Shown here piece after piece: positions 10,294 through 52,167 of a DNA stretch of 64,000 nucleotides. The stretch's first letter is position 1. Every line of letters starts with the position of its first letter. Made by a program: the position numbers and the translations under genes. Under the pieces are notes generated by a model. It did no database searches. It saw nothing but the letters and a program-made list of their open reading frames with translations, and had not been told where the DNA came from. The stretch is from an uncultured Acidobacteriaceae bacterium (GTDB lineage Bacteria > Acidobacteriota > Terriglobia > Terriglobales > Acidobacteriaceae), in assembly GCA_963767745.1 (NCBI GenBank), contig CAVYFF010000001.1, positions 116,614 through 180,613 on the forward strand. Direction: 5' to 3'.

Positions 10294-10440
10294 GTCGGGA
10301 TGACAATTCATCTTGGAAACTATACTTAGCGTTCCCAAACAAAATTGTCATCCCGACCGGAGCGTAGCGTAGTGGAGGGATCTGCGGTGCGCCCTTCGGG
10401 CTTCCCAAATTCGGGAGTTCTCACGCAGACTCTTTAGCTC
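10294..10440. repeat. family B palindromic intergenic repeat (core GTCATCCCGACCGGAGCGTAGC..GGAGGGATCTGCGGTGCGCC)
   Basis: Perfect 15-bp inverted arms GTCGGGATGACAATT (10294-10308) and AATTGTCATCCCGAC (10343-10357). The tail is shared with 30880-31130 and 34670-34740. Confidence 0.85.
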
Positions 10441-28327: not shown

Positions 28328-28500
28328 TACGCTCCGGTCGTTTTATCCGTTCCTCGCAGAGGTGTCATCCCGACCGGAGCGTAGCAGACAACTACTCCTA
28401 CTTCTTTTGTGCCTTCCTAACGGAGGTGTCATCCCGACCGGAGCGAAGCGCAGTAGAGGGACCTGCTGTTCATCATCCGCAATAGCGAATCTGGATGAAA
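28328..28500. repeat. family B repeat cores preceding the tandem array
   Basis: GTCATCCCGACCGGAGCG occurs at 28364 and 28428, with an inverted fragment GCTCCGGTCG at 28330. The leader ACCTGCTGTTCATCATCCGCAATA is shared with 34620. Confidence 0.8.
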
Positions 28501-28880
28501 GCGCAACCCTCCCCTTTGTCATCCCGACCGAAGCCGAGGGATCTGCGGTTCTGTCATCCATTAACCAACTTCCAGGGAAGCGCAACCCTCCCCTTTGTCA
28601 TCCCGAGCGAAGCCGAGGGATCCGCGGTACTGTCATCCACTAACCAACTTCCAGGGAAGCGCAACCCTCCCCTTTGTCATCCCGAGCGAAGCCGAGGGAT
28701 CCGCGGTACTGTCATCCATTAACCAACTTCCAGGGAAGCGCAACCCTCCCCTTTGTCATCCCGAGCGAAGCCGAGGGATCCGCGGTACTGTCATCCACTA
28801 ACCAACTTCCAGGAAAGCGCAACCCTCCCCTTTGTCATCCCGACCGAAGCGCAGCGAAGTGGAGGGATCTGCAGTTCCGT
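28501..28880 (+). repeat. tandem array of a 79-bp unit (about 4.5 units)
   Basis: Units start at 28501, 28580, 28659, 28738 and 28817 (GCGCAACCCTCCCCTTTGTCATCCCGAGCGAAGCCGAGGGATCCGCGGTACTGTCATCCA(C/T)TAACCAACTTCCAGGGAA). There are no spacers. The overlapping ORFs 28495-29225 are repeat artefacts. Confidence 0.95.
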
Positions 28881-30869: not shown

Positions 30870-31130
30870 CGATTCCAATTCATCTTGGAAACGGCACCTA
30901 GCGTTCCCAAACTGAATTGTCATCCCGACCGGAGCGTACCCGGATTTCCTGCCACGCTGCACTGGACAAGACAGCGTGTGCGCCTTTCTGTAAGGGAAAG
31001 GCGCATGAAGTGCACCAACGCCACTAAGTTCCACAGGAAATTCGGGGGAGCGTAGCGGAGGGATCTGCGGTGCGCCTCTCGGCCTTCCCGAATTCTTGAG
31101 TTTGAGCGCACAGTTCTCACTCAGACTCTA
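30870..31130. repeat. family B repeat copy, interrupted by a nested insertion
   Basis: Collinear with 10294-10440, except for 108 extra bp between GTCATCCCGACCGGAGCGTA and GCGGAGGGATCTGCGGTGCGCC. Confidence 0.85.
30939..31046. mobile_element. 108-bp MITE-like insertion with terminal inverted repeats and 8-bp target-site duplication
   Basis: The TIRs are CCCGGATTTCCTG (30939-30951) and CAGGAAATTCGGG (31034-31046), matching 12/13. GGAGCGTA is duplicated at 30931-30938 and 31047-31054. There is an internal 9-bp stem GCGCCTTTC/GAAAGGCGC. The uninterrupted target is seen at 10358-10366. Confidence 0.75.
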
Positions 31131-34108: not shown

Positions 34109-34615
34109 ATGACTGAGCAGATTTCTGAAGTGTTTCTTTCCGCATCGGTGAAGCGGATGCAGCTTTCCGAAAACGACATCAATCGATGTCTCGATAAGTT
34201 GTCGGATGAGCAGATATGGTGCCGTGGAGCGGACTACGAAAATTCCATCGCTAATCTTCTACTTCACCTTGAAGGCAATCTGCGCCAGTGGTTTCTGCAT
34301 GGCATTGACGGCCAGCCGGATGTGCGTCAACGAGACTCGGAGTTCACGCTCTCTCCTTCCGAGCGATGCGGTGAGATTCGTAGGCGCTTTGCTGCAACCC
34401 TCGCAGAATGCCGAGAAGTGATCGGGTCTCTGCCGCCCGCGCGTTTGCTGGAAATGATCGACCCTCAGCCAACTGGAAACTGGGGCCCGATGACCATCCT
34501 CGAAGCGATCTACCGGATTGTCAGCCACCTGCAATTGCATCAGGGACAGATCATCCTCTTGACCAAACAGCTCATTGCCAGCGACGTGGATCTGTCACTC
34601 CCGCGGAAGCGATAG
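34109..34615 (+). CDS. DinB/DUF1572-like protein
   Basis: ORF 34013..34615 trimmed to MTEQISEVF... It carries the HLEGNLRQW and SHLQLHQGQI histidine motifs of the DinB fold. Confidence 0.65.
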   Translation: MTEQISEVFLSASVKRMQLSENDINRCLDKLSDEQIWCRGADYENSIANLLLHLEGNLRQWFLHGIDGQPDVRQRDSEFTLSPSERCGEIRRRFAATLAECREVIGSLPPARLLEMIDPQPTGNWGPMTILEAIYRIVSHLQLHQGQIILLTKQLIASDVDLSLPRKR

Positions 34616-34619
34616 CGCA

Positions 34620-34800
34620 CCTGCTGTTCATCATCCGCAATACCAAATCTGAATGGAAATGCCGCCCCTCCCTTTGTCATCCCGAGCCAAGCCGAGGGAT
34701 CTGCGGTGCGCCCCTCGGCGCTCCCGAATTCTCCGTCTCAAATCTCAAAGCACAAACAGAAGTGTCATCCCGATCGGACCGCAGTGGAGAGATCCGCGCT
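34620..34800. repeat. family B repeat copies
   Basis: The leader ACCTGCTGTTCATCATCCGCAATA plus TTTGTCATCCCGAGCCAAGCCGAGGGATCTGCGGTGCGCC.. starts at 34620. A second core GTCATCCCGATCGGACCGCAGTGGAGAGATCCGCG is at about 34763. Confidence 0.8.
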
Positions 34801-35034
34801 CAAGCCATTGTAGCGACAAGCGTCGCAGCTTGGACAACTTGATTGGAGCACCGGGCCGGAATTGAACCGGCGAATACTGGTTTTGCAGACCAGCGCGTTA
34901 GCCGCTTCGCCACCGGTGCTCAGCTCGCTCTGCGGGCAAATCCCTCATCAAGGCTGCCCTCAGAGTTTACCTACTTTGCCTGACTGGCAAGATCTTTCTT
35001 TGCCGGGTACCACGTTTCTACCGCCAGGCCGGCC
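34801..35034 (-). repeat. left copy of ~230-bp direct repeat (flank + tRNA-Cys + peroxiredoxin 3' end)
   Basis: Aligns by eye with 43879-44109 with few mismatches or indels. Confidence 0.85.
34844..34919 (-). tRNA. tRNA-Cys(GCA): tRNA-Cys (anticodon GCA)
   Basis: The reverse complement reads GCACCGG-TG-GCGAAGCGGCTAACGC..GGTCTGCAAAACC..GCCGGTTCAATTCCGGC-CCGGTGC-T-CCA. The acceptor, anticodon and T arms pair. U73 and an encoded CCA are present. Confidence 0.85.
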
Positions 35035-35063
35035 CGTACCGTAGCTGTATCTGAGGCTGCCTC
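34971..35063 (-). pseudogene. remnant of 1-Cys peroxiredoxin gene with internal deletion
   Basis: It encodes ..EAASDTATVRA|GLAVETWYPAKKDLASQAK*. The full gene has ..EAASDTATVRAVF.. and ..GAGLAVETWYLAKKDLVSQAK* about 225 nt apart (44331-44361 and 44046-44109). Confidence 0.7.
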
Positions 35064-35085
35064 AAGGATCTGCGGTAGCCCAGGA

Positions 35086-35140
35086 CATCGTCGCCGCACA
35101 GTCAGAACTTGTTTGGAGCACCCGGAGGGAATTGAAGCCG
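35086..35140 (-). other. third partial copy of the tRNA-Cys downstream flank plus a degenerate tRNA 3'-end remnant (att-like)
   Basis: CATCGTCGCCGCACAGTCAGAACTTGTTTGGAGCACC matches 43884-43932. The following CGGAGGGAATTGAAGCCG resembles the T arm, but the stem can no longer pair. Confidence 0.6.
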
Positions 35141-35231
35141 TCGTCAACGCCCATTCACGGTAAGTGTGAGCGTCACAGCGGTTCCCCTGCGACTGGCGTT
35201 CAACGGGCACAGGATTGCGGGCTGGCCACCC

Positions 35232-38200
35232 TCAGGAGGCGGCGGGAATGTTTTCAGAAGCATAGGTCCTCTCGAACCTCAAATCGGGTGCCGGTATCCC
35301 GCTCTTACCCTCAAAAGCGGCATAGACCACCGGCAGCAGCAAGAGCGTGAGCGCCGTGGAACTGACCAGGCCGCCGATAACCACAATCGCCAGCGGACGC
35401 TGAATCTCAGACCCCGGTCCGGTAGCAAAGAGAAACGGCACCAGACCAAGTGCGGCAACGGTAGCTGTCATCATAACCGGCCGGAATCGCAACCGCGTAC
35501 CTTCGCGGATGGCATTCGCCTGTGTCAGCCCCTCCTCACGCAACTTACGAATGTACGACACCAACACCACGCCATTGAGCACAGCAATTCCCCAAAGAGC
35601 GATAAACCCGACCGAAGCGGGAACCGAGAGATACTCGCCGGAAAAAAAGAGTCCGAGTATGCCACCGATCGATGCGAGGGGCACCACTGTAATGATGAGC
35701 GCGGCAAAACGCACCGACTGAAACAGGATGAACAACAGGAAGAAGATCGCGGCAATGGTGATCGGCACAATCACCATCAAGTGGTGCAGGGCACGCTGCA
35801 TGTTGTGAAACTGTCCACCCCATTCGATGTAATATCCGGCGGGCAGCTGGACCTGTTGTTCTACTTTCTCCTGTAGTTCCTTAACGTACCCGCCCAGGTC
35901 GCGGTCCTGCACGTTGACGCCGACGACAATGCGGCGCTTGCCCATGTTGCGATTGATGAGCGCGGGCCCTTCGACCACCTTCACACGCGACAGGTCTTTC
36001 AATGCTATACGCGGTCCGTCCGGCGAGCTGATCTGCAATTCGCGAATGTCTTCCACGCTGTCGCGTAGATCCTCCGGCAATCGGACGACGCCGGCGAACC
36101 GGCGCTCTCCTTCATAAATCTCGGTGGCGGCCTTGCCCGCGATCGCGGTTTCGATCACATCGTTTACGTCCGCCGCGTTAAGCCCATAGCGCGCGATGGA
36201 GCCGCGGTCAATGTCGATGGTGAGGTATTGCTGGCCTCCCACGCGGTCAACGCGCGTATCCTGCGTTCCCTCGATGCCGGTCGCTACTTTTGCAATTTGG
36301 TTAGCCTTTTCGACCAGCGTATCCAAATCATCGCCGTAGAGCATGACGGCGACATCGGCCCGCACCCCGGAAACCATCTCGTCCACCCGGTCGCTGATCG
36401 GCTGCGACATCACCAGGTTGATGCCGGGCAAAGCCGTGAGCCGTTCACGGATCTGCTCCGCAATGCTGTCCTGGGTCATGCCACGCGGCCGCTTGTCATG
36501 AGGAGTAAGCGAGGCGAGCACGTCGGCCTCATTGGCACCGGCTGGATCGGCAGGCGACTCGCCGCGGCCTAAACGCGAGACCACATTTTTTACCCCGGGT
36601 ACCTGTAGCATCAGGACCTGCATTTCCTTCTCCATCTTGAGCGATTCCTCAAGCGAGATGTTAGGCACACGATCGGCGTTGGGCGAGAGCGTGCCCTCCT
36701 GCATTTCCGGGATGAACGACGTACCCAGCAGGGGAACGAGAAACAGCGCGCCGCAGAAGGCAGCGATGACCGCAATGACCGTAATCTTGCGATGCGTCAT
36801 CGCCCAACCTAATAAAGCCTCATAGGGTTTGCGCAGGAGGCGGACGAGCCAGGTGTCTTCTTCGGAGCCACCCTTCAGCAGGTACGAAGAAAGTACCGGC
36901 GAAAGCGTGAGCGAGAGCACGAGCGAGATAGCCAGCGCGATGGCAATCGTGTACGCCAGTGGGGCGAACAACTTGCCTTCCATTCCTTCCAGGGTCATCA
37001 GAGGCAGGAAAACGAGGATGATAATGGTCACGCCGAAGAGCACCGGCGTCGCCACCTCTTTCACCGCCAAAAGCACCACGTGCAGCCTGGCGAACGTATC
37101 TCCCGGGCGCTGATCGTGCTTGGCGTGGCTCAGCCGCGCAAATATGTTCTCTACCACGACGACAGACCCGTCCACCATCAGCCCGATCGCGATGGCGAGA
37201 CCGCCCAGGGACATAAGATTCGCTGACAAGCCGACGCCATTCATCACCAGGAAAGTGAGCAGCGGCGTCAGCACAAGATTCGCGCTGACGATGAGGCTGG
37301 AGCGCAGATCGCCAAGAAAAAGAACCAGCACTACCACCACCAACAGCACGCCCTCGCCTAGCACTTCGGTCACGGTGTGGATGGCAGCATCTACCAGTTC
37401 CGAGCGGTCGTAATAGGGAACGATCTGCAGCCCGCCCGGAATCATGTTTTTGCGATTGATTTCCGCCACGCGCTCTTTTACCTGGCCGACAATCTCTTTG
37501 GCATTGCCACCGCTGGTCATCAGCACCACGCCACCCACGGCCTCGGTATAGCCGTTCTTCATCATGGCCCCGTAACGGACTTCTGTGCCGATGCGCACCT
37601 CAGCCACGTCGCGAATGTAAACCGGTGTGCCCCCGGTCTCGGTGAGCACAATATTTCGAATGTCATCGAGACCACGCACCAGCCCAACGCTGCGGATAAG
37701 ATACTGCTCTGCATGCTGGCGCAAAACACCACCGCCGGCGTTGGCGTTATTTTGTGCCAGGGCGTCGCGCACATTATTGATGGTCAGGTTGTAGTAGTGC
37801 AGCTTCTGCGGATCAACCAACGTTTCGTATTGCTTGACGAAGCCGCCGGTGGAGTTGATTTCCGCGACTCCAGGAATGGAGCGCAATAACGGACGCACCA
37901 CCCAGTCCTGCAAGGTCCGCCGCTCAATAAGTTCGTCGCGGGTGAGCGGGCGATGCGCGGCACTTTCGTTTGCCACCTCGAGCGTGTATTGGTAGACCTC
38001 GCCCAACGCGTTGGTGATAGGCCCGAGCACCGGCGTGACGCCCACCGGCATTCTGTCGCGCAGTTCCGACAAGCGTTCCGAAATCATCTGCCGTTCGCGG
38101 AAAAGATCGCTCGAGTCTGTGAACACCAGCGTGATCAAAGACAGACCGGGCTTGTTGAGCGAGCGCATATCAGTCATGCCGGGCAAACCGGTCATGGCAA

Positions 38201-38411
38201 TTTCAATCGGAATGGTAACGAAACGCTCCACCTCTTCTGGAGACTTCCCCGTGGCCTCGGTGGCGATCTGCACCTGGATATTGGCCACATCGGGAAAGGC
38301 ATCCACGGACAGATGTTCTGCCGCGTTGATTCCGAATCCCACCAGCACCAGGGCAACGACGACCAGGATAAGCCGCTGCCGCAAAGCTCCTGCAATGATG
38401 GAGTGCAGCAT
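35232..38411 (-). CDS. czcA: CzcA/CusA-type heavy-metal efflux RND permease
   Basis: Intact 1059-aa ORF. The N-terminus MLHSIIAGALRQRLILVVVALVLVGFG..AFPDVANIQVQI and the overall layout are typical of the HME-RND family. Confidence 0.9.
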   Translation of the reverse strand: MLHSIIAGALRQRLILVVVALVLVGFGINAAEHLSVDAFPDVANIQVQIATEATGKSPEEVERFVTIPIEIAMTGLPGMTDMRSLNKPGLSLITLVFTDSSDLFRERQMISERLSELRDRMPVGVTPVLGPITNALGEVYQYTLEVANESAAHRPLTRDELIERRTLQDWVVRPLLRSIPGVAEINSTGGFVKQYETLVDPQKLHYYNLTINNVRDALAQNNANAGGGVLRQHAEQYLIRSVGLVRGLDDIRNIVLTETGGTPVYIRDVAEVRIGTEVRYGAMMKNGYTEAVGGVVLMTSGGNAKEIVGQVKERVAEINRKNMIPGGLQIVPYYDRSELVDAAIHTVTEVLGEGVLLVVVVLVLFLGDLRSSLIVSANLVLTPLLTFLVMNGVGLSANLMSLGGLAIAIGLMVDGSVVVVENIFARLSHAKHDQRPGDTFARLHVVLLAVKEVATPVLFGVTIIILVFLPLMTLEGMEGKLFAPLAYTIAIALAISLVLSLTLSPVLSSYLLKGGSEEDTWLVRLLRKPYEALLGWAMTHRKITVIAVIAAFCGALFLVPLLGTSFIPEMQEGTLSPNADRVPNISLEESLKMEKEMQVLMLQVPGVKNVVSRLGRGESPADPAGANEADVLASLTPHDKRPRGMTQDSIAEQIRERLTALPGINLVMSQPISDRVDEMVSGVRADVAVMLYGDDLDTLVEKANQIAKVATGIEGTQDTRVDRVGGQQYLTIDIDRGSIARYGLNAADVNDVIETAIAGKAATEIYEGERRFAGVVRLPEDLRDSVEDIRELQISSPDGPRIALKDLSRVKVVEGPALINRNMGKRRIVVGVNVQDRDLGGYVKELQEKVEQQVQLPAGYYIEWGGQFHNMQRALHHLMVIVPITIAAIFFLLFILFQSVRFAALIITVVPLASIGGILGLFFSGEYLSVPASVGFIALWGIAVLNGVVLVSYIRKLREEGLTQANAIREGTRLRFRPVMMTATVAALGLVPFLFATGPGSEIQRPLAIVVIGGLVSSTALTLLLLPVVYAAFEGKSGIPAPDLRFERTYASENIPAAS

Positions 38412-39624
38412 CTAAACGCCTCCCTTGATCGCGTTCTGCTTGCGCTGGTTATTCAGGTGGAACGCGCCGTCGGTGACGATGTGTTCATCCTGCCCGATGC
38501 CGCTGAGCACAATGCGGCGATCATTCTCCTCATCTCCCAGCGAAACCTGGCGCAGCGCATAGGTCCGGGGGCCGTTCTGCACGAATACGTAATCCTGGTT
38601 GTCTTCTCGTACGATGGCAGCGTTGGGCACAGTGAGTTTGTGATCCGCGTGGCCGGTCAGCACCATGGTGGCCAGTTCGATCCGGCTTCAATAAGCCGTC
38701 AGCGTTGGCCACGTCCATGCGGACCTCCACCGTACGCGTGGCTGGGTCGACAATCGGTGAAACAAAGGCAAGGTGCCCGCTCATTCCCTGTTGCAAGAGA
38801 GCGGGAATGCGCACCTGGACCTCCATATCCTTCCGCAGTTGGCCTGCATCTTCCTCCGGTACATTGGCCACGATCCACACGCTGGAGAGATCGGCAATGG
38901 TAAAGGCGGGATCAGATGGCTGCACCACTTGACCGACAGTGATCTCGCGTTTCAGCACCGTGCCGCTTCTTGGGGTAACGATGGGGTATTCCGCGCTTAG
39001 CTTGCGGCTGCTTTCCAATTGCCGAATCTGCGGTTCTGTCATCCCAAGCCCGCGCAGTTGGGTGCGGCATGACTCCACTTCGGTGTTCGCCTGTAATAGC
39101 TCTGCCCGGCGGCGCTCAAGCTCGGCACGGCCAATCACATCAGCTTCCACCAGTTGTTCGGCTCGGTTTTCTGAAGCCTCAGCGAGACCGCGTTGCGATG
39201 CGGCTTTGATGAGCGCACGTTGGGTATCTGACAAATCGGTACTGTGCAGCATGGCCAGGGCGGTGCCCGCCTTCACTTTTTGGCCCTCGAACACAAGCAG
39301 TTCGAGAATGCGCCCTGAAACCGGGGAGCCCACGCGGGCGATGCGCCGCGCATCCGTCTCCACGTGTGCGGCCACTTGCAACGTGCCGTCGACTTCCGTC
39401 AATTCAGGCGTGCCAAATTTAAGGTTTTGCGCCAGCGCCGGGGTGATCGCTACCTCGTTCGGATTTGCTTTCGGGTCTGCCGTCCTCTCGGCCGCGCTGG
39501 CCTTTTGTTTCCCCTTGCAGCCCTGGGTTGCCACCAGAAGCAACATAAGAAGCAACAGTGCCCCATAACGATGGCGCGTTCCACGGCCTGGGAAATGTGG
39601 CAGGGAACAAAGTAGATCGATCAT
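38412..39624 (-). pseudogene. czcB: CzcB-type RND adaptor (MFP), one frameshift near 38675
   Basis: ORF 38530..39624 (..VEVRMDVANADGLLKPD) continues as ELATMVLTGHADHKLTVPNAAIV.. in ORF 38412..38666. It has an ATGA overlap with czcC and its stop abuts the czcA start. Confidence 0.8.
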
Positions 39625-41026
39625 CAGGGTTTCGCTCCGGGCGCAATGGCGCCGAGTTCTTCCAAATCCACCAGCGCCGACTGGCGCGCGAACTGCGCAT
39701 CCACAAGGTCGCCACGAACGCTTTGCAGCACCCTCTGCGCATCGAGTACTTCGACAATGCCGCGCTCGCCAAAACGATAGGCAGCCTTGGCCGCGTCCAC
39801 CGCGCTCACTGCAGCGCGCAGCGAGCCGGACTCAAGCGAAGTGACCTGCTGATCGGCCAGCTGATATTGCTCGTAGGCCCGCTCCAGCGCCGAAATAAGT
39901 TCGAGCGTTCTCTGGTAAAGCACAGAGCCGACTGAGAAGTTGCGGCTTTCGCCTCGCCTATCTGTCCCTGCCGTCGATCCCACAAGGGAATCGGCACGGT
40001 GACTCCCGTGCGCCAGAAACGAAGGTCGGGTTGGTTCTCGAACTCAGCAAATGCGATGGGTTGGGGGATGCGCAGAGCCCGTTCACGATCGAGCGTAGCG
40101 AGCTTTGCCTGAATTTCAGCCTGCGACGCGGCTAAGGCGGGGTGGATCTGCATCACGTGTTCCCTTAGCTGCTTGAGCGGTGGCAGCGTAATGCGCCCCT
40201 CAAACTCGCCCTGAGGGTCGAGCTGTGCGTCTCCGTCCCCGGCAATCGCGACCCGCAGCAGCGCAATCGCATTGGCGAACTCAAGTTGTGCGCTCGTGAC
40301 CGCAAACCGTGCACGGCCTAGTTCGGCCTCGGCCCGGGTTAACTCCAGCCGGCCTTCTTCGCCGACGTTGACAGACACCTCCACTCGCCGTCGCAGGTCT
40401 TCCACCAGTAGCAGGTTCTCCTGTGCGTGGCCGATCTCTTCGCGGCGCCGGAGCGCATTGTAGAAAGCATGTTTCACATCGCCCACGACGGACAACATCA
40501 CTGACTGTTGCGCCGACTGGCTACCCACCACGGAGTACTGCGCAGCGCGCTGGCGTGCACGGCGCTCAGACGGAATCTCGATGGTCTGATAGGCGGCATA
40601 ATGCTGCAGCAGGCCCGGGAGGCCGGGGATTGCCACTGGCCTTGCATATTGCTGGCCTTCGTAAACTTCCAGGCTGGGATTGGTATACGCGTGGGCCACG
40701 CGGGCTGCGGCCGCGGCGCGCTGAGTCACCGCAGAAGCCTCCTGCAGTCTGGGGTGATTGCGCTGTGCCCTGGCAATGGCGTCCGCCAAGGTGAGGCCCA
40801 GAGGTTTCTCGGTGGCCGGAGCAGCGGCGAGCGTCTCGGTTTCCTGGAGAAGAAAAGGAGCCTGAAGACGCGGAGCCGGAGGAAACTTGCTTGCAATGGG
40901 TAGCCGGCTCGAGTCAGTTGCGACCTGTCCGAGCGAGGCTGGGGACGGAGCCTGAGGCAACGACTGTCCCCAAAGAAGGCAACATGGCACAAACATCAGA
41001 AATAGAATCGATCTGCAAGGTGTCAC
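39624..41026 (-). pseudogene. czcC: CzcC/TolC-type outer membrane factor, one frameshift near 39950
   Basis: ORF 39806..41026 (..WDRRQGQIGEAKAA) continues as ..LYQRTLELISALERAYEQYQLADQQV.. in ORF 39624..39983. Confidence 0.75.
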
Positions 41027-41037
41027 GCCGTGGTCTA

Positions 41038-41053
41038 TGCAATTGGCTGGCCA
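41038..41053 (-). promoter_or_regulatory. candidate sigma-54 (-24/-12) promoter TGGCCA-N5-TTGCA upstream of czcC
   Basis: The minus strand reads TTTGGCCAGCCAATTGCATAG. GG and GC have the canonical spacing of TGGCAC-N5-TTGCW. A sigma-54 activator gene lies divergent and adjacent. The -12 element is only about 12 nt from the annotated GTG, so the true start or 5' end is uncertain. Confidence 0.45.
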
Positions 41054-41313
41054 AAGGACAATCGTTCAATCCTCCCAATCCAGGCATTGCACAGCACAGC
41101 AGGTGTTCCATAAGGGCCACCCCCTGTTCCGAAACGTACAGCCGATACCTATCCCCGTGGCCGGAAACCCTTGCCGGGCACAGAGAATCCCGCCAACCCT
41201 ACTTGGCCGTCCAAATGCACTGTCCTGTTCGGATGATTCCCAGGCATACTTCCGCAACGTTGTTGCTGCCCTCCCTGGATAGCTATCCCTGGTCAACATG
41301 GGAGAATGGAAGC

Positions 41314-42441
41314 ATGTCCTCACGTCCGTCCAGCCTGCGGTCTCCGCGGGCAAAGGCCTCGCTGATTGTGATCCTGGTGATCGCGCTGGCGGCCTTCAAC
41401 TGGATGGTGCCCCCGCATCATGTGATTTTGCACAACGTGCTCCATCACCTCAACATCTTGCCCTTCATGTTGGCAGGCATGTTCTTCGGCTGGCGCGGAG
41501 CGCTCAAAACCATCCTGCTGGCCACCGTGTTACAGGGCCCCTCCATTTACCGTCACTGGTTCCAAGAGCCCCTGGATGCGCAGGACCAGGTGGTAGAAAT
41601 CAGTACCTTCGGCCTGGCTGCGGTGATAGCCGGTCTTCTGGCCGACCGTGAACGCACCCAGCGAAGACGGGTGGAAGCGACCAAGGTTGAACTGGAGCAT
41701 GTGTATACAGAGCTGCAACAGAATATTGATCATCTAAAAAAGACTGAGCGGCTCACCGCTGCCGGCCAACTGTCGGCCAGCCTGGCCCATGAGATCCGCA
41801 ATCCGTTGGCAAGCATCAGCGGAGCGGCCGGGCTTCTGGCACGCGGGCAAATCTCTGCCGAAGCCCGCACCGAGTGCCTCGAGATCCTCACCAAGGAGTC
41901 CCAGCGGCTCAACAAGCTACTCACGAACTTTCTCGATTTCGCTCGTCCGCGCCTGCCCCGTCTGCAGCGCGCAGAACCATTGGAGCTGCTTCAGTCGGTC
42001 ACGGCGCTTGCCCAGCACACCGCCACCCGTCAAGGCATAACGCTGCGGTTGGTTTCAGCAGGGGAGCCGCGTGAGATCGAGTGCGATCCGGAACAGATTA
42101 AGCAGCTGTTACTGAATCTAATTCTCAACGCCATCCAGGCGACAGATGGGGAAGGAGAGGTCGCAGTCCGCATTTTGTTTTCCGAAGACAGCGTGTGCGT
42201 CGATGTCTGCGATCGGGGTTCCGGTATCGCGGCAGAGGATCGGGAGCGTATCTTCGATCCCTTTTTCACCACCAAGGAGAATGGAACCGGGCTCGGCCTT
42301 GCCATTGCATTGAACATAGCCACACAGCACGGCGGGACAGTCGCCTGCAGACCCAATGACGGCGGCGGTTCCGTCTTTCGCATGGAACTGCCTGTCCTGG
42401 CAGCGACCGCACAGCAATCTACCAAGGCAGAAGCGCTATGA
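41314..42441 (+). CDS. membrane sensor histidine kinase (HisKA/HATPase_c)
   Basis: ORF 40891..42441 trimmed to MSSRPSSLRSPRAKASLIVILVIAL. It has about 4 TM helices and no large periplasmic loop. The H-box is SLAHEIRNPL, with N/G boxes LILNAIQAT and GTGLGLAI. Confidence 0.8.
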   Translation: MSSRPSSLRSPRAKASLIVILVIALAAFNWMVPPHHVILHNVLHHLNILPFMLAGMFFGWRGALKTILLATVLQGPSIYRHWFQEPLDAQDQVVEISTFGLAAVIAGLLADRERTQRRRVEATKVELEHVYTELQQNIDHLKKTERLTAAGQLSASLAHEIRNPLASISGAAGLLARGQISAEARTECLEILTKESQRLNKLLTNFLDFARPRLPRLQRAEPLELLQSVTALAQHTATRQGITLRLVSAGEPREIECDPEQIKQLLLNLILNAIQATDGEGEVAVRILFSEDSVCVDVCDRGSGIAAEDRERIFDPFFTTKENGTGLGLAIALNIATQHGGTVACRPNDGGGSVFRMELPVLAATAQQSTKAEAL

Positions 42442-43829
42442 GCCCCAATCACATCCTGGTGGTCGACGATGACAGCAGCTTGCGCCGGGTCATGAAGATG
42501 CAATTGGAAGAGGCTGGTTATGAGGTATCTCTGGCCGCGGACGGAGACCAAGGCTGGAAGATGCTAAGGGAGGTGGAACCCCAACTCATCATCACTGACC
42601 TGAAAATGCCTACCACTGGACTGGAGCTTCTCGCCCGCGTCACGAAAGAAGGTATGCAGACGACGGTCATCGTGGTGACTGCGTTCGGCACCATAGAAAC
42701 CGCGGTAGAAGCCATGAAGATGGGCGCTTACGATTACGTGACCAAGCCCATCGACTTCGAAGCCCTCGTCCTGATTGTGCATCGCGCGATGGAGCGGCAG
42801 AACCTGCTTGAAGAAGTGCGCACACTGCGTTCAGCGCTTGATCAGCGTTACGGGTTCTCCGGCATTGTTGGCCACTCCAAAGGCCTCCTCCGCGTGCTCG
42901 ATCAGGCGGCGCGCGTATCCCAGAGAACCACGACGGTGCTCATTCGGGGAGAGACTGGTACGGGCAAGGAACTCGTAGCCCGTGCGATTCATCACAATAG
43001 CCGCCGAAGCAATCGGCCGTTCGTCGCCGTCAACTGCGGCGCGATACCCCGAGACCTGGTGGAATCCGAACTCTTCGGCTATGTGCGGGGAGCATTCACG
43101 GGAGCGCTCTCGAATAAGCTCGGACGTTTTGAGTCTGCCGACGGGGGCACAATTTTTCTCGACGAGGTAGGGGAACTTCCACTGGAAGCCCAGGTCAAAC
43201 TTTTGCGAGTCCTCCAGGAGGGCGAAGTACACAAGCTTGGCGCGAGTACGCCGCTCAAAGTAGACGTTCGCGTCATCGCAGCCACCCATCGCGACCTCTC
43301 CGCAATGGTAGAAGACCAGACTTTTCGCGAAGACCTTTACTACCGGCTCGCAGTCGTTCCGTTGACGGTGCCTCCTCTGCGGGAGCGGCGCGAAGACATC
43401 CCCGAGTTAATTGATAGCTTGTTTCAACGAGCCAAAGAGCGGCATGGTCTACTCGATGTGAAGATGGCCGCCGCTGTGCACCAACGGTTAATTTCGTATC
43501 GTTGGCCGGGCAACGTGCGTCAACTTGAAAATGTGCTGGAGCGTTTGGTGGTTCTCGCTTCTGGAGATCTGATCACCGCGGATGATTTGCCTGAAGAGCT
43601 GGTGCCGGTCTCTCCCAGCACTGCCGTCCTGTGGCCAAACTTGCCTGAAGAAGGCATCAGCCTGGAAGCGGTCGAACGCGAACTGATTAGCCGCGCTCTG
43701 GAAAGGTTCGATGGAAACCAATCCCAGGCCGCCCGCTACCTCGACATCAGCCGCCGCACCCTGATCTATCGCATGGAGAAGCACGGCCTGGGCAAAGTAG
43801 ATCCCGAAACCGCAGAAAACCTCCCCTAG
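42438..43829 (+). CDS. sigma-54-dependent response regulator (NtrC/ZraR-type enhancer-binding protein)
   Basis: 463-aa ORF. REC is ILVVDDD..ITDLKMP. The AAA+ domain has GETGTGKE, GAFTGA and FLDEVGELP. A Fis-type HTH is at the C-terminus. It has an ATGA overlap with the kinase gene. Confidence 0.9.
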   Translation: MSPNHILVVDDDSSLRRVMKMQLEEAGYEVSLAADGDQGWKMLREVEPQLIITDLKMPTTGLELLARVTKEGMQTTVIVVTAFGTIETAVEAMKMGAYDYVTKPIDFEALVLIVHRAMERQNLLEEVRTLRSALDQRYGFSGIVGHSKGLLRVLDQAARVSQRTTTVLIRGETGTGKELVARAIHHNSRRSNRPFVAVNCGAIPRDLVESELFGYVRGAFTGALSNKLGRFESADGGTIFLDEVGELPLEAQVKLLRVLQEGEVHKLGASTPLKVDVRVIAATHRDLSAMVEDQTFREDLYYRLAVVPLTVPPLRERREDIPELIDSLFQRAKERHGLLDVKMAAAVHQRLISYRWPGNVRQLENVLERLVVLASGDLITADDLPEELVPVSPSTAVLWPNLPEEGISLEAVERELISRALERFDGNQSQAARYLDISRRTLIYRMEKHGLGKVDPETAENLP

Positions 43830-43878
43830 CTCTGCTACGCTCCGGCCCTGACCAAATTCCATTTCATCTGAACCAGAA

Positions 43879-44109
43879 CAAGCCATCGTAGCGACGGGCG
43901 TCGCCGCTCAGTCAGAACTTGTTTGGAGCACCGGGCCGGAATTGAACCGGCGAATACTGGTTTTGCAGACCAGCGCGTTAGCCACTTCGCCACCGGTGCT
44001 CACTCGCTCTGAGGCAGCCTTATCAAGGCTGCCCTCAGAGTTTACCTACTTTGCCTGGCTGACAAGGTCTTTCTTTGCCAGGTACCACGTTTCTACCGCC
44101 AGGCCCGCC
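43879..44109 (-). repeat. right copy of ~230-bp direct repeat (flank + tRNA-Cys + peroxiredoxin 3' end)
   Basis: Aligns with 34801-35034. Confidence 0.85.
43924..43999 (-). tRNA. tRNA-Cys(GCA): tRNA-Cys (anticodon GCA), second copy
   Basis: Identical to 34844-34919 except for one D-loop base (AGTGG vs AGCGG). Confidence 0.85.
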
Positions 44110-44714
44110 CCACCGCCGTTGGTCCGCTTGCGCGCGTCTTCCACGGTAACCGGAGCCGGGACGATGACGGAATCACCAACCTTCCAGTTAGCAGGCACGG
44201 ATACCCCATTGCCGTCGATCGTCTGCAGCGCTTCGAAAATGCGGATCAGCTCATCCACATTGCGCCCCAACTGCATCGGGTAGTAAACGATGGCGCGGAT
44301 ATTCTGCTTGGGATCGATCGCGAAGACAGCCCGTACCGTGGCTGTATCCGAGGCTGCCTCATGTACCAGGCCATATAGCTGCGACACTTTCTGGTCGAGA
44401 TCGGCAACGACCGGGAATTTTACTTCCACCCCGGCGTTGCGCTCGATGTCACGCACCCAGGCGATATGGGAGTAAATGCTGTCAATCGACACGCCGATCA
44501 ACTGCACGTTCAATCTCTCAAAATCAGCCGAGCGGCGTGCGAATTCAATGAACTCCGTGGTGCACACCGGGGTGAAATCGGAAGGGTGGGAAAACAGCAA
44601 TACGTACTTGCCCTTGGCGGTGTAATCGCTCAACTGGATGATGCCGTGCGTGCTCTTTGCTTTGAAGTCCGGCGCCTGTTCGAGAATGCGTGGAATGCGG
44701 GATTCAGTGCTCAT
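44046..44714 (-). CDS. 1-Cys peroxiredoxin (Prx6-like)
   Basis: ORF 44046..45071 trimmed to MSTESRIPRILEQAPDFKAKST. It carries the motifs LFSHPSDFTPVCTTE and SHIAW. Confidence 0.85.
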   Translation of the reverse strand: MSTESRIPRILEQAPDFKAKSTHGIIQLSDYTAKGKYVLLFSHPSDFTPVCTTEFIEFARRSADFERLNVQLIGVSIDSIYSHIAWVRDIERNAGVEVKFPVVADLDQKVSQLYGLVHEAASDTATVRAVFAIDPKQNIRAIVYYPMQLGRNVDELIRIFEALQTIDGNGVSVPANWKVGDSVIVPAPVTVEDARKRTNGGGAGLAVETWYLAKKDLVSQAK

Positions 44715-45544
44715 GTGGGTTTCCTCGTGAAAACGCGGTTGGCAGTAGGCCTTCGGGGCGCTGTTTCCGGGCTTGCTTCCAAGCACAAGGGAACCCGCGG
44801 CGGGGGCCGGCTGCGGGTGAGTGGATACGTATGTCAGGATTCGAAGCTTGCGATTCGATCTAGGAACACACCCGCAGCGTGCAGCAGCGACAGCAACAGC
44901 AGCTGCAACAGAGGGAGCCGGGGTGGTGAGAGATCTTTGGCATTTCTCAAGTAGGAAGCGACGGGCTTCGACTCGTTCTAGAATAGAACCGGCTGCATGA
45001 GGTGTCAAACCTCGCTCTTGTGCATGAGCCAGAACCAAACACCGGGCGGAATGAAATAAAAAAGGGAACACGCCGAGTCGTTGCTGGAATTTTCATTTCG
45101 GGCAGCACTGATCTTGCAGCAAAAGAGCGTCTTTTCCTTGAACGATTCACATGCTTTCAACAGGGCTGATGACGCGTATACGCAAGACTGGCAACGCGAC
45201 ACCGCCTCGCGGTGGAACCTGAACAAAAAAACAAGTCGCACTTCGCTTCATCTTCTCCGTTTACACATCGCTTTCATCTTCGTACTCTGTGCAAGCGTTG
45301 CTTTCGAGGTAACGCAACTGTCGGCCTTGAAATCTGACAACTAAATTCAGATCGGACGCGCTTGGATGGGCGCTGCTGCTGGACGAAGACCTGCTGTCCC
45401 ATCGTGCATGGTGACTGCAAAAGGGTCCCTATTCGCCAGGCGCTGCCATTCACGACGCGATTTCTTCCGTTCTCTCCCCCAGCTGCGGACATGTGCTGTG
45501 TGCCCGCGTTTCACAACTCCTTTGAAAGGAGACATTCAGGATCC

Positions 45545-45991
45545 ATGAGGCCAAAGAAAACCATTTTATGTGTCGATGACAACGAGCAGTCGCTTTCCGT
45601 TCGCAAATTCCTGCTCGAAACTCGCGGGTATCGGGTGCTGACCGCATCCGGTAGCCAACAGGCATTGGAGTTATTTCGTGAAGGAGGGATCGATCTGGTT
45701 TTGAGCGACCTGATCATGCCCTATATGGATGGCAACGAGCTCATACGCCGCATGAAGGAGCTGGCGCCGGAAGTGCCGGCCATCCTGATCAGCGGCAGCG
45801 TGAAGGCATTCGATCGCGCCAATCGTGCCGATGCCTTCTTGCCCAAGGGTGCTTGTTCGCCGGTTGAGCTGCTGGAGCGCATTCGCGTGATGGTAGCCCG
45901 CAAGCGCGGCCCCAAGAAGGGACACGGCTTGCGGCCGCTGTTGGCCGACCACCAGCCGGAGAGCACCGATTCGCTGGTAGTAGGCGTTTGA
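45545..45991 (+). CDS. stand-alone response-regulator receiver (REC) protein
   Basis: ORF 45362..45991 trimmed to the ATG after AAAGGAGAC. It reads MRPKKTILCVDDNEQS..DLVLSDLIMPYMDG..PAILISG, with no output domain. Confidence 0.75.
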   Translation: MRPKKTILCVDDNEQSLSVRKFLLETRGYRVLTASGSQQALELFREGGIDLVLSDLIMPYMDGNELIRRMKELAPEVPAILISGSVKAFDRANRADAFLPKGACSPVELLERIRVMVARKRGPKKGHGLRPLLADHQPESTDSLVVGV

Positions 45992-46018
45992 TGGCGGCTC
46001 TCGCTCGAGAGCCGCGGT

Positions 46019-46717
46019 TTGCCGGTTACAATCAGGAACGTGCAGCCCATCATTGAGGCAAAGAACGTCAGCAAGGTTTACCGTGCGGGTAAGGTAGAGG
46101 TTCCTGCCCTCAGAGAAGTGTCGTTCTCCGTTCCGCCGGGCGAGTTCGTCAGCATCGTCGGACCCTCCGGCAGCGGCAAATCGACGCTCTTCTACATCCT
46201 TGGGGGTCTGACGCGTGCGACCTCGGGCAGCGTCTTGATCGATGGCGTCGATTTTGCGCAGCTGACCGACTCCCGGCGTACCGTCTTGCGTAAGACGAAG
46301 ATTGGCTTTGTCTTTCAGAAGTTCAATCTGTTGCCTACGCTGACGGCGCGAAGCAATATAGAAATCGCGCGCGAGATCGCCGCCAGCCACCAGCCGCAGG
46401 ACGAAGAGCTTCTTCGACATCTCAGCGAGATGCTCGGCATAACCGGGCGTCTCGATCACCGTCCTTCGGAGCTTTCGGGCGGAGAGCAGCAGCGCGTGGC
46501 CATTGCCCGCGCGCTCATCACGCGCCCTGCCATTATTCTTGCGGATGAACCGACCGGCAACCTCGATACCGTCAATTCGGACGCTGTGCTGGAGATGCTC
46601 CGGCGCTCCAACAAAGAGTTCAAGCAGACGGTGTTGATGATCACCCACAACCCTGAGGCCGCCGCGATTGGAGACCGCATCCTGCACATGCGCGACGGCC
46701 GTCTGCTGGACGCATAG
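46019..46717 (+). CDS. MacB/LolD-type ABC transporter ATP-binding protein (no adjacent permease)
   Basis: 232-aa ORF. Walker A is GPSGSGKST, the signature is LSGGEQQR and Walker B is ILADEPT. The H-loop is ITHN. Confidence 0.85.
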   Translation: MPVTIRNVQPIIEAKNVSKVYRAGKVEVPALREVSFSVPPGEFVSIVGPSGSGKSTLFYILGGLTRATSGSVLIDGVDFAQLTDSRRTVLRKTKIGFVFQKFNLLPTLTARSNIEIAREIAASHQPQDEELLRHLSEMLGITGRLDHRPSELSGGEQQRVAIARALITRPAIILADEPTGNLDTVNSDAVLEMLRRSNKEFKQTVLMITHNPEAAAIGDRILHMRDGRLLDA

Positions 46718-46729
46718 GCCGCCGCAGGC

Positions 46730-47263
46730 GTGATCTCCATGACCACCTGGGTACTTTTTGCCGGGCTGCCTGGAACCGGCAAGAGCACGCTTGCCCGGGC
46801 GATGGCAGAGCGCCTGGGCGCGGCCGTTCTCGATAAGGATCGTGTGCGCGGCGCGCTGTTTCCCGGCACGCTGACGGACTACACCGCGCCACAGGATGAA
46901 TTGTGCATGCGCGCGATGCTGGATGCGGCCTCCTACCTGACGCAGCACCGGCGCGTGGACTACATCTTTTTCGATGGGCGTACCTTCTCCACGCGGGCGC
47001 AGGTGGAAGAGGTCCTGCACGCGGCGAAACGTGCCGGAGTTCGCTGGCGCATCCTCCATCTGACCTGTGCGGATGTGGTCGCGGAAGCGCGCCTGGCGCA
47101 GAACGATCCCACCCATCCGGCGCAGAATCGCGATCCGGGGCTCTATCGCACGATCAAACAGCATTTCGAGCCCATTCCGGAGGAGAAACTGGAGGTTGAT
47201 ACAACTTTGGGCATAGAGGGGCACTTGGCGGCGGTCGAGGCGTATCTCCGGGGTGGGGAATAG
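46730..47263 (+). CDS. P-loop kinase/AAA-like ATP-binding protein
   Basis: 177-aa ORF with Walker A GLPGTGKSTLA followed by LDKDRVR. It is small-kinase-like. Confidence 0.6.
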   Translation: MISMTTWVLFAGLPGTGKSTLARAMAERLGAAVLDKDRVRGALFPGTLTDYTAPQDELCMRAMLDAASYLTQHRRVDYIFFDGRTFSTRAQVEEVLHAAKRAGVRWRILHLTCADVVAEARLAQNDPTHPAQNRDPGLYRTIKQHFEPIPEEKLEVDTTLGIEGHLAAVEAYLRGGE

Positions 47264-47316: not shown

Positions 47317-47391
47317 GCGGGAGTAGCTCAGTGGTAGAGCATCGCCTTGCCAAGGCGAGGGTCGCGGGTTCAAGTCCCGTCTCCCGCTCCA
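47317..47391 (+). tRNA. tRNA-Gly(GCC): tRNA-Gly (anticodon GCC)
   Basis: GCGGGAG-TA-GCTCAGTGGTAGAGC-A-TCGCCTTGCCAAGGCGA-GGGTC-GCGGGTTCAAGTCCCGT-CTCCCGC-T-CCA. The cloverleaf pairs. Confidence 0.9.
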
Positions 47392-47477: not shown

Positions 47478-47552
47478 GGCGCGGTACCCAAGCGGTAAGG
47501 GAGAGGTCTGCAAAACCTTTATGCGTCGGTTCGATTCCGACCCGCGCCTCCA
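47478..47552 (+). tRNA. tRNA-Cys(GCA): tRNA-Cys (anticodon GCA), distinct sequence type
   Basis: GGCGCGG..GAGGTCTGCAAAACCTT..GTCGGTTCGATTCCGAC-CCGCGCC-T-CCA. It lies 86 nt after tRNA-Gly. Confidence 0.85.
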
Positions 47553-50331: not shown

Positions 50332-51990
50332 TCAAACGCGGGTAAGATCAGGCACCCCGGTGAGCGCCAGGTATTGATGGATGAACGCAATCGACATGCT
50401 GCCTTCGCCCACACCACTGGCTACACGTTTGATCGAACCGTGACGAACGTCGCCCGCGCAAAATACCCCCGGCAGGCTCGTCTCCAGAGGAAACGGCTCT
50501 CGATCGAGAGGCCACGCGGTCAGATCTCTTCCGGTGTAAATATAGCCTTTGGCATCACGCTCCAGGGCTATGGGAAGCCAGGATGTGTTCGCCGTCGCGC
50601 CGATCATCAGCAACAAGGCGTCAGCGCTACGCGTAGTGGAAACTCGTTCACGAGTGGTGGTTACGATCCGCTCCAGTCGCTCTCCACCAAGCGCTTCTGT
50701 AACCTCTGTCCATGGTTCGATGCGAATGTTGCCCTTGCCCGCGATCTGCGCGATCAGGTATTGCGACATACTCGCGGCGAGTCCGGCACCACGCACCAGC
50801 ATGATTACTTCAGCAGCATAGTTAGAAAAGAAAACAGCCGCCTGGCCGGCCGAGTTACCCCCTCCGACCACGAATACCCTCTTCCCAGCTAGACTATGGG
50901 CCTCCTGACGAGAGGCGCCGTAAAGTATTCCACGGCCAAGCAGGCGGTCCAATCCCGGGACTTCCATCCGATGCCACTCGACGCCGGTTGATAGCAACAC
51001 AGTGGGAGCCAAAATGTGCTCTCCGCCATCCAGTTCCAGGCGATAGCCCGTATCGGCGACGAGCACCGCTTCGATCCAGCGTGTCACCGCAATCTCCGAG
51101 CCGAAATGGCGTGCCTGTTTGAGTGCGCGCTCGGTGAGTTCATCACCGGAAATGCCGGTAGGAAATCCCAGGTAGTTTTCAATCCGGGATGATGTCCCGG
51201 CCTGTCCTCCGGCGGCCGAGCGTTCGACAATCAGCACCTTTAACCCTTCCGAAGCTCCGTAAACTCCAGCCGCCAGGCCGGCCGGACCTGCGCCCGCAAT
51301 CACAACGTCATAACTCTTGTCCTTTGGCACGGTCTGGAAACCCAGCGCTTGTGCCACCGTGCGGACAGTCGGAGTCACCAGTTCCGTCGCACCGTCGACC
51401 ACGACGGCCACTCCATCGTTCGCTCGCGGAACGAAGGAGGAAGAACGCTCCGGCTCAAGTTCGCTATCCACCCAGTCATACTGCACCCGATTCGCGGAAA
51501 GGAAGCTGCGGATAGCCCGGCAATGCGCGTCATAAGGGGATCCCACCAAGAGAACTCGTGAGGAGGGGGTCTCCTTTACGTACTGTGGCGCCATCGAGAG
51601 TCGCTCCGTCATCGTCTGAAAAATGGCTGTGCCGCAGGAGGCGGAATCTCGAATCAACTCCTGAAGTTGCTGTCGGTCGAAACGCGCCAGGCGGCAGCGA
51701 GTTACGGCCAGCACGGAGACGATATTTGCTGTGCCCAGGAGAATTGGAATCTCGCCAAAAAACTCACCCGCCTTGAGTGCCTCAAGCTCCCGGCGCTGGC
51801 CCACAATATCTTTCACTACCTGGAGTAAGCCTTCGAGAACGACAAAGAAACGAGGATCCTCGCCTTCCCGTATGACCCAGTCACCGTCTTCCACGTGGAT
51901 ATCCGCAGCCTTTTGTGCGAGTCTTTGGCGCGCGGGTTCGTCCAGAACCGCGAAGAGAGGAATGGGCGCCAGTTCTGCAGCAGTGATCAC
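50332..51990 (-). CDS. cyclic-nucleotide-binding domain fused to thioredoxin-reductase-like FAD/NAD(P) oxidoreductase
   Basis: 552-aa ORF. The cNMP motif is GEFFGEIPILLG. The Rossmann motifs are DVVIAGAGPAGLAAG and VFVVGGGNSAGQAA, and the C-terminal motif is GVFCAGDV. No CxxC occurs anywhere. Confidence 0.8.
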   Translation of the reverse strand: MITAAELAPIPLFAVLDEPARQRLAQKAADIHVEDGDWVIREGEDPRFFVVLEGLLQVVKDIVGQRRELEALKAGEFFGEIPILLGTANIVSVLAVTRCRLARFDRQQLQELIRDSASCGTAIFQTMTERLSMAPQYVKETPSSRVLLVGSPYDAHCRAIRSFLSANRVQYDWVDSELEPERSSSFVPRANDGVAVVVDGATELVTPTVRTVAQALGFQTVPKDKSYDVVIAGAGPAGLAAGVYGASEGLKVLIVERSAAGGQAGTSSRIENYLGFPTGISGDELTERALKQARHFGSEIAVTRWIEAVLVADTGYRLELDGGEHILAPTVLLSTGVEWHRMEVPGLDRLLGRGILYGASRQEAHSLAGKRVFVVGGGNSAGQAAVFFSNYAAEVIMLVRGAGLAASMSQYLIAQIAGKGNIRIEPWTEVTEALGGERLERIVTTTRERVSTTRSADALLLMIGATANTSWLPIALERDAKGYIYTGRDLTAWPLDREPFPLETSLPGVFCAGDVRHGSIKRVASGVGEGSMSIAFIHQYLALTGVPDLTRV

Positions 51991-52167
51991 GTAGTCTTTC
52001 CCCGCTCCACCTAGGGTAGGCCTTTTTTCTTCAGGATCTCGCCATAGTTTTCTCAGCTTGGCCTGTAGTTGAGCAGGAAGCGCTAAGAAAGCACGAGAGA
52101 TTGCAGGCGCCGGAGGCCCGGCATTCCTGTACAGTTATGTGTCGAGCCTCCTAAAAAGGAAATTAAA

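Follow-up and report, generated by a model that had tools for sequence, protein, structure and literature searches.

Two minus-strand genes for tRNA-Cys(GCA), both 76 nt long and among four tRNA genes found by ARAGORN and Rfam, bracket a five-gene metal-efflux cassette in a 64,000-nt stretch of DNA (the window) from a metagenome contig of a soil member of the Acidobacteriaceae, obtained by long-read metagenome assembly. An earlier sequence-only reading described these genes (tRNA-Cys #1 and #2) as one D-loop base apart and as lying within direct repeats of ~230 bp that also carry the 3′ end of a 1-Cys peroxiredoxin gene (prx), with a tRNA 3′ remnant past czcA and, between the repeats, an intact czcA, czcB and czcC with one frameshift each, a histidine kinase, and an NtrC-type activator. 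The description proved correct as given: ARAGORN and Rfam place the single difference at position 16 (C16 in tRNA-Cys #1, U16 in #2), the repeats lie at 34801–35035 and 43879–44110 and include the last 65 nt of prx, the remnant lies at 35136→35114 with a trailer continuing to 35089, and Pfam and NCBIfam (applied with cut-offs) recover the domains named. It missed an internal prx fragment and a third overlapping copy, there being three copies of the prx–tRNA–trailer region at the locus and not two. The locus is considered here as an insertion at a tRNA-Cys integration hotspot, probably altered later by a second round of recombination.

Read on the minus strand, the locus begins with full-length prx, tRNA-Cys #2, its trailer (d2), and a 49-nt spacer, followed on the opposite strand by the ntrC-like regulator and histidine kinase genes. 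A divergent promoter region of ~200 nt then leads to czcC, czcB, and czcA, a 95-nt spacer, and a displaced tRNA 3′ fragment (WR); ~24 nt further on lie a truncated prx (prx′), a terminator, tRNA-Cys #1, its trailer (d1), DinB, and a GntR–aminotransferase gene (Table 1). Each ~230-nt repeat comprises the end of prx with its stop codon, a terminator hairpin, tRNA-Cys, and ~45 nt of trailer; identity between the repeats is about 90–93%, with 94% and 98% in the ungapped blocks and ~89.5% in gapped BLAST. WR consists of tRNA nt 54–76 plus 25 nt of trailer; its first base is T54, the exact start of the T-loop, and it is 92% identical to tRNA-Cys #2 and d2 (43946→43899) over 48 nt, with four mismatches. 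Within prx′, an internal stretch of 33–34 nt (35064→35031) that matches prx at 44361→44329 is joined to the prx 3′ end across a 218-nt deletion. A 79-aa open reading frame (ORF) at 34971–35210 belongs to no family, overlaps the remnants, and was treated as spurious.

Table 1. Features of the tRNA-Cys islet and its borders, with positions in the window.
Feature	Position	Strand	Evidence and remarks
Full-length 1-Cys peroxiredoxin gene prx, resident	44046..44714	-	Pfam AhpC-TSA and 1-cysPrx_C; NCBIfam peroxiredoxin above cut-off; collinear with L002, 89.9%
tRNA-Cys(GCA) #2, putative regenerated intact target (attL side)	43924..43999	-	ARAGORN, Rfam; exact sequence in 8 relatives
Trailer d2	43879..43923	-	First 25 nt (43923→43899) in the 48-nt att-like repeat; last 20 nt resemble d1
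49-nt spacer, repeat to ntrC stop codon	43830..43878	.	Homologs confined to three assemblies of the lineage
Sigma-54-dependent response regulator (NtrC/ZraR/AtoC-like)	42438..43829	+	Response_reg, Sigma54_activat, HTH_8
Sensor histidine kinase (ZraS/AtoS-like)	41233..42441	+	HisKA, HATPase_c; start from alignment with the L083 kinase; mechanical ORF starts at 40891
Candidate sigma-54 −24/−12 promoter TGGCCAGCCAATTGCA, upstream of czcC	41038..41053	-	2 mismatches
czcC, outer-membrane factor	39624..41032	-	OEP domains in two frames; tblastn with L083 CzcC
czcB, periplasmic adaptor	38412..39624	-	HlyD_D23; L001 version above TIGR01730 cut-off
czcA, heavy-metal efflux (HME) resistance–nodulation–division (RND) permease, intact	35232..38411	-	ACR_tran; TIGR00914, 1115 bits vs cut-off 701
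95-nt spacer past czcA stop codon	35137..35231	.	Cassette homology stops at 35229; no homolog found elsewhere
WR, putative displaced tRNA-Cys 3′ fragment, attR-like	35089..35136	-	T-stem strand CCCTC, L002 type
prx′ remnant	34971..35064	-	Internal 33–34 nt plus last 60–65 nt with stop codon; 87/94 matches to prx
tRNA-Cys(GCA) #1, duplicate	34844..34919	-	C16 variant seen in this lineage only
Trailer d1 (34843→34801 within repeat) and resident spacer to DinB	34616..34843	-	Repetitive extragenic palindromic (REP)-like element at ~34620–34707
DinB/DUF1572, resident right flank of empty site	34109..34615	+	Pfam; adjoins tRNA-Cys in L002, L008, L013, L014, L020, L025

A Prx scan that took a single genome for each species yielded 80 related loci (referred to, like other contigs compared, by L numbers). 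In this clade, the gene after prx is the same 76-nt tRNA-Cys; in L002, the closest genome (98% amino acid identity in Prx), and in L008, L013, L014, L020, and L025, DinB (and GntR) comes next, with only 6–180 nt between tRNA and DinB. A single prx–tRNA-Cys–DinB in the closest relatives is an empty site of the kind that the sequence-only reading had suggested seeking, and supports insertion. Other relatives carry unrelated inserts, from ~0.7 to >10 kb, between tRNA-Cys and DinB, and neither the czc cassette nor the arrangement of the window was found at the prx–tRNA-Cys site in any of the 80 loci. On the left, 47564→43900 is collinear with L002 446–4172 (89.9%); on the right, 34619→24552 is collinear with L002 4321–13654 (~85–88%). 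What lies between, 34620–43899 (9.28 kb), stands in place of 148 nt of L002 and is an insertion of ~9.3 kb at tRNA-Cys.

The same layout is present in L001 (ENA ERZ25039470, contig_126673), which is 99.1% identical to the window over 20.6 kb, and L090 (ERZ25039548:contig_65468; the first 12.4 kb were used, the remainder being chimeric) is 99.5% identical across GntR–DinB–tRNA-Cys #1–prx′–WR–czcA 3′ end. The sequence-only reading had named two cases that would undo it, an artefact of assembly and an ancient segmental duplication common to all relatives, and the indel errors of this long-read metagenome assembly and the visibly chimeric further part of L090 lend some colour to such doubts. However, the repeat copies diverge by 6–10%, each with unique junctions, the layout agrees among three assemblies that come from at least two samples, and the arrangement is shared by none of the 80 loci; both explanations are essentially refuted. 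Because three independent assemblies share the layout, an artefact of assembly as its source can, for practical purposes, be excluded.

Tyrosine integrase genes lie directly 3′ of the orthologous tRNA-Cys in L012 (10802–12037), L024 (10861–11976), and L055 (~4050–5237), and L007 holds an element of 9.6 kb that comprises a truncated integrase (11027–11509), DUF3987, and an XRE regulator and is flanked by a repeat of tRNA nt 29–76. The four integrases share 50–76% amino acid identity with one another, and each is followed by the trailer motif TCAATAACTTA; the genes after the integrase include a LysR regulator in L012 and L024 and, in L012, also an extracytoplasmic function (ECF) sigma factor. 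Since relatives hold differing inserts at this tRNA-Cys, four of them with tyrosine integrases, the prx-linked tRNA-Cys is a true target of integrases and a hotspot of integration in one clade of the Acidobacteriaceae. The four integrase-bearing elements, with their TCAATAACTTA-type trailer motif, differ in that motif from the window islet and have no sequence relation to it.

A displaced tRNA 3′ fragment and a regenerated target mark the ends of tRNA-integrated islands (PMC4383910), and the T-loop is a known attB sublocation and integrase crossover position (PMC1762012). WR looks as a resident 3′ fragment should look after displacement: the T-stem strand in it, CCCTC, and its trailer (…CTGTGCGGCGACGATGTC…) are of the L002 type, with the best outside match at L002 4125–4178 (88.9% over 54 nt), whereas both intact tRNA-Cys genes of the window have a CCGG/CCGG T-stem. 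Three matched T-stem types—AGGG/CCCT, CCGG/CCGG, and CGGG/CCCG—are scattered across the clade, one of the three occurring in 15 lineages, one in 11, and one in 7. Mismatched, chimeric T-stems are restricted to insert-bearing lineages, namely L007 (10993–11019), L026 (10780–10806), and tRNA-Cys #2 of L001 (10765–10791), the last with GCGGG/CCGGC against GCCGG/CCGGC in the window; their distribution fits crossovers inside the T-loop. The att-like repeat is the 48-nt segment from T-loop to trailer and not the ~230-nt prx′/tRNA duplication, because the latter includes a whole tRNA and upstream host DNA. The layout of a tRNA-targeting island proposed in the sequence-only reading thus stands as far as the intact tRNA, the cargo, and the displaced 3′ fragment are concerned, but not in its use of the ~230-nt duplication as an att repeat.

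Mobility genes are lacking in the islet, as had already been remarked: five genes fill it, and tblastn of the window with the tyrosine integrases of relatives gave noise only (E > 0.4). The spacers, proposed earlier as places where an integrase remnant might persist, yielded a single match (35225→35103, to the L012 integrase, E = 0.47), which vanished without SEG filtering and was rejected. An exact-pattern scan of metagenome contigs for the tRNA–trailer junction returned no matches. As no integrase is present in the island, the case for integrase involvement comes from the footprints alone.

The cargo has close kin throughout the family. CzcA homologs with 82–94% amino acid identity are abundant in the Acidobacteriaceae (Terriglobus, Granulicella, Edaphobacter, Silvibacterium), and the five-gene arrangement recurs in at least five other flanking contexts there, none of them with mobility genes. 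The cassette sits between a beta-lactamase gene and glpK-glpD-glpF in L083–L088, between UDG and imuB-dnaE2 on one side and an amidohydrolase on the other in L172, between GFO_IDH and MFS genes in L174, and beside P-type ATPase and AI-2E genes in L175; in L082 a 94%-identical CzcA is followed by glpK, and in L089 an 88%-identical CzcA is accompanied by a different regulator pair. Nucleotide homology to these other cassettes has its limits at the stop codon of czcA and a short way within ntrC. A transposon-like unit was rejected, no conserved ends or terminal inverted repeats being found across six contexts, and so was a plasmid origin, the best plasmid or chromid match (Cupriavidus) reaching 67.6% amino acid identity against 82–94% for chromosomal Acidobacteriaceae. 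A compositional contrast, which would support an acquired island without being essential to one, did not materialise: GC and tetranucleotide usage are typical of the flanks, and 80% of non-overlapping control windows lie further than the cargo from the window mean in tetranucleotide usage. The cargo is DNA native to the family that was moved within a genome or between related ones, not a foreign element. That the ntrC–kinase/czcCBA cassette stays a unit across at least five neighbourhoods in the family, with neither mobility genes nor shared ends, is an observation in its own right.

The copy made up of prx′ and tRNA-Cys #1 appears to form a second, separate recombination layer. Over the 94 positions of the prx fragments, prx′ matches the window prx at 87 and L002 at 85, and the window prx matches L002 at 88. 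Five of the seven codon differences between prx′ and prx are synonymous, with TCA, GCT, GAT, and AGT among the prx′ variants, against a neutral expectation of 26%–32% (P = 0.015–0.04), and this excess suggests that most of the divergence dates from a time when each copy was a functional gene in a genome of its own. An in-situ tandem duplication of the prx 3′ end, tRNA-Cys, and trailer might instead have come first, with the island later entering the upstream tRNA copy and prx′ decaying neutrally; the closeness of prx′ to the window prx, the single difference between the two tRNA-Cys genes, and a disruptive L→P change in the conserved ETWYLAKK motif of prx′ would agree with this. Synonymous differences are not expected to predominate in a dead fragment, however, and WR with its trailer should be the tandem twin of the tRNA-Cys #1 3′ end, yet the divergence between the two far exceeds that between prx′ and prx, and their T-stems are of different types, which argues against simple in-situ tandem duplication. 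Duplication before insertion is, accordingly, very unlikely.

The simplest account of the locus is a history in two steps, in which an insertion at the tRNA-Cys hotspot by T-loop integration was followed by recombination with a related allele, leaving a decayed remnant that resembles a cis-mobilisable element (CIME); the probability of this reading is put at roughly 0.6. In the first step, the cassette would have entered through tyrosine-integrase-type recombination in the tRNA T-loop, with tRNA-Cys #2 regenerated at one end and the resident fragment 35136→35089 displaced to the opposite end. In the second, the island-bearing segment would have recombined with a related allele of the prx–tRNA-Cys region; a circle integrating by a single crossover of the Campbell type would fit, and so would homology-facilitated illegitimate recombination (HFIR). 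This step would have added prx′ and a second intact tRNA-Cys (#1), with the full prx on the other side, and the element would by now be fixed, or would at best need a helper for any mobilisation.

Several points weigh against this history. Neither an integrase nor an excisionase nor a remnant of one was found in the island, where the five genes leave only the three spacers of 49, ~200, and 95 nt. The 45-nt trailer after tRNA-Cys #2 is homologous to resident trailers and not obviously element-derived, and a left junction 45 nt downstream of tRNA-Cys #2 would be just as good a reading. Neither the intermediate (an island lacking prx′ and tRNA-Cys #1) nor the donor was found. At its other locations, the cassette lies in ordinary chromosomal surroundings, with no att site, integrase, or ends in common, and its composition here is like that of the flanks (cargo GC 59.2% against 57.8%). 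The synonymous-excess test has just seven sites, and the chimeric T-stem of L001 is a single base that could be a sequencing error.

Part of the same evidence speaks for an acquisition by recombination only, in which no integrase ever took part: DNA taken up from a related strain of the Acidobacteriaceae would have been inserted beside tRNA-Cys by homologous and illegitimate recombination or replication template switching, with the three copies as by-products. No integrase is present, the composition of the cargo is native, the many settings in which the cassette occurs show neither mobility genes nor conserved ends, resident sequence has homology to each of the three trailer copies, and the synonymous bias of prx′ suggests a related donor allele. 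Against this stand the start of WR exactly at the T-loop, a known integrase crossover position (PMC1762012), the demonstrable use of the same tRNA-Cys as an integrase target in relatives, and the confinement of chimeric T-stems to insert-bearing lineages; recombination without any integrase is therefore rather unlikely.

A broader proposal is that the hotspot has a high turnover, with integrases acting at the T-loop or anticodon loop to deliver cargo and the whole tRNA–island block then passing between related species through homologous or illegitimate recombination, without an integrase. Were this so, the three T-stem types and the chimeric T-stems (L007, L026, and tRNA-Cys #2 of L001) would be footprints of repeated swapping of the tRNA 3′ half, and GCGGG in L001 against GCCGG in the window would reflect stepwise compensatory repair of a chimeric tRNA. 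The proposal is speculative and distinctly unlikely as it stands.

The two-step history can be set beside several known systems. With Islander-type tRNA islands (PMC4383910), the islet shares its position on the 3′ side of a tRNA gene, a regenerated tRNA and displaced 3′ fragment as direct repeats, an empty site in relatives, the use of the same tDNA by integrase-bearing elements of the clade, and a displaced fragment starting at the T-loop, a known attB sublocation (PMC1762012); it differs in having no integrase, no compositional signal, and an extra prx′–tRNA duplication outside the att-like repeat. CIMEs lack integration and transfer genes and retain att sites (PMC6323972), and here too att-like repeats flank cargo without such genes, the three att-like copies recalling tandem accretion. 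However, a cognate integrative and conjugative element or integrative and mobilisable element was not identified, the att copies are mismatched at 4 of 48 positions (including T-stem and acceptor bases), and the rightmost copy—a whole tRNA with upstream host DNA—is not a product of accretion. Campbell-type integration and HFIR are familiar from lambda-dgal-like merodiploids and from natural transformation, respectively. As in their products, full-length and truncated copies of a gene, each with an adjacent tRNA, flank imported DNA, and the copies diverge as two alleles of related genomes would; unlike them, the window islet comes with no observed donor or circular intermediate. An integrase-less islet at a tRNA gene, whether a CIME or a decayed island, is a common and well-described state, and the islet of the window would best be classed as a tRNA-Cys islet that has decayed or is non-autonomous, a CIME-like remnant.

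As to its content, gene order and domains show the cargo as a self-contained five-gene cassette in which the genes of a histidine kinase and a sigma-54 activator are transcribed divergently from those of an HME-RND czcCBA pump. The nearest solved structures to CzcA are ZneA (4k0e, 678 bits) and CusA (642 bits), multidrug RND proteins scoring at most 277 bits, and the domains of the adaptor and outer-membrane factor adjoin czcA. In possessing a CzcA-family permease above the TIGR00914 cut-off, together with these two partners, the cassette resembles czcCBA/zneCBA of Cupriavidus metallidurans, but its best match to an HME-RND protein there is only 67.6% identical, and its pump is paired with an NtrC-type sigma-54 activator and not with the OmpR-type CzcRS. 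The adjacency of a sigma-54 response regulator and a histidine kinase recalls ZraSR of Escherichia coli, with the window pair falling below the ZraR/ZraS equivalog cut-offs; the NCBIfam matches of the regulator to AtoC, NtrC, and ZraR are likewise all below equivalog cut-offs, so that the regulator and kinase are members of the ZraR/AtoC/NtrC type and not orthologs. An exact look-up of the NtrC protein of the window returned no record, and a metagenome scan with the NtrC-like protein gave only generic sigma-54 activators of at most 52% identity.

The promoter candidate at 41053→41038, with two mismatches, is not significant alone, matches of this kind not being enriched across the window; its GG-N10-GC block is, however, conserved in L083 and L087 (a 78%-identical cassette) within an otherwise diverged spacer. 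The kinase would be predicted to sense periplasmic metal, and the phosphorylated activator to fire a sigma-54 promoter ahead of czcC, with the pump exporting divalent metal cations.

The sequence-only reading recorded one frameshift each in czcB and czcC. That in czcB is an extra C at 38678, and L001 has an intact czcB of 403 aa; that in czcC lies near 39926–39929 and is absent from L001, which has czcC indels of its own at 40139 and 40687. Split genes also occur in other long-read genomes of the set. Since the frameshifts are specific to each assembly, sequencing error is the simplest explanation; they are probably not pseudogenisation, and the cassette is probably functional.

For the poorly studied soil Acidobacteriaceae, these comparisons point to a specific prx-linked tRNA-Cys as a recurrent landing site for mobile DNA, and they suggest that a complete metal-efflux and regulator cassette can be relocated to it and kept after mobility functions are lost. 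The islet reveals no new mechanism, and its use lies in the annotation of islands in metagenome-assembled genomes, with two cautions: a frameshift in a contig from a long-read metagenome should not be taken to mean a pseudogene, and a repeat that includes a whole tRNA with neighbouring host DNA signals homologous recombination and not an att site.

Some smaller observations concern the contigs compared. L090 was considered as a deletion variant and rejected: between 12453 and 20507, its GC rises from 58% to 71% inside czcA, with a substrate-binding protein (SBP) gene and a GH48+CBM2 cellulase gene beyond, and the contig is probably a chimeric metagenome assembly with the join at window position 36562. 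Between the window and L001, otherwise at least 99.5% identical, two patches (45000–46500 and 50500–52000) differ by ~5%–6% and by several multi-base indels, and resemble tracts left by recombination or else hypervariable genes; the first covers a 517-aa ORF (45671–47224) without a Pfam or NCBIfam family.

Other observations concern the surroundings of the hotspot. About 3.5 kb upstream of prx, on the plus strand, lie tRNA-Gly(GCC) and a second kind of tRNA-Cys(GCA), of 75 nt (47317–47391 and 47478–47552). The latter is only ~63% similar to the 76-nt tRNA-Cys, and the pair is kept in every relative tested (L002–L024). Two distinct tRNA-Cys genes therefore flank prx in the clade, and in this lineage a span of 13 kb holds three such genes. 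Further to the right, a 79-nt unit is repeated in 4.5 tandem copies (97% identity) at 28499–28850 and holds the REP-like palindrome GTCATCCCGAGCGAAGCCGAGGGATC; solo intergenic copies are found in the spacer between DinB and tRNA-Cys #1 (~34620–34707), at 31058–31096 and 10375–10399, and in L002 at 300–340 and 4193–4289.

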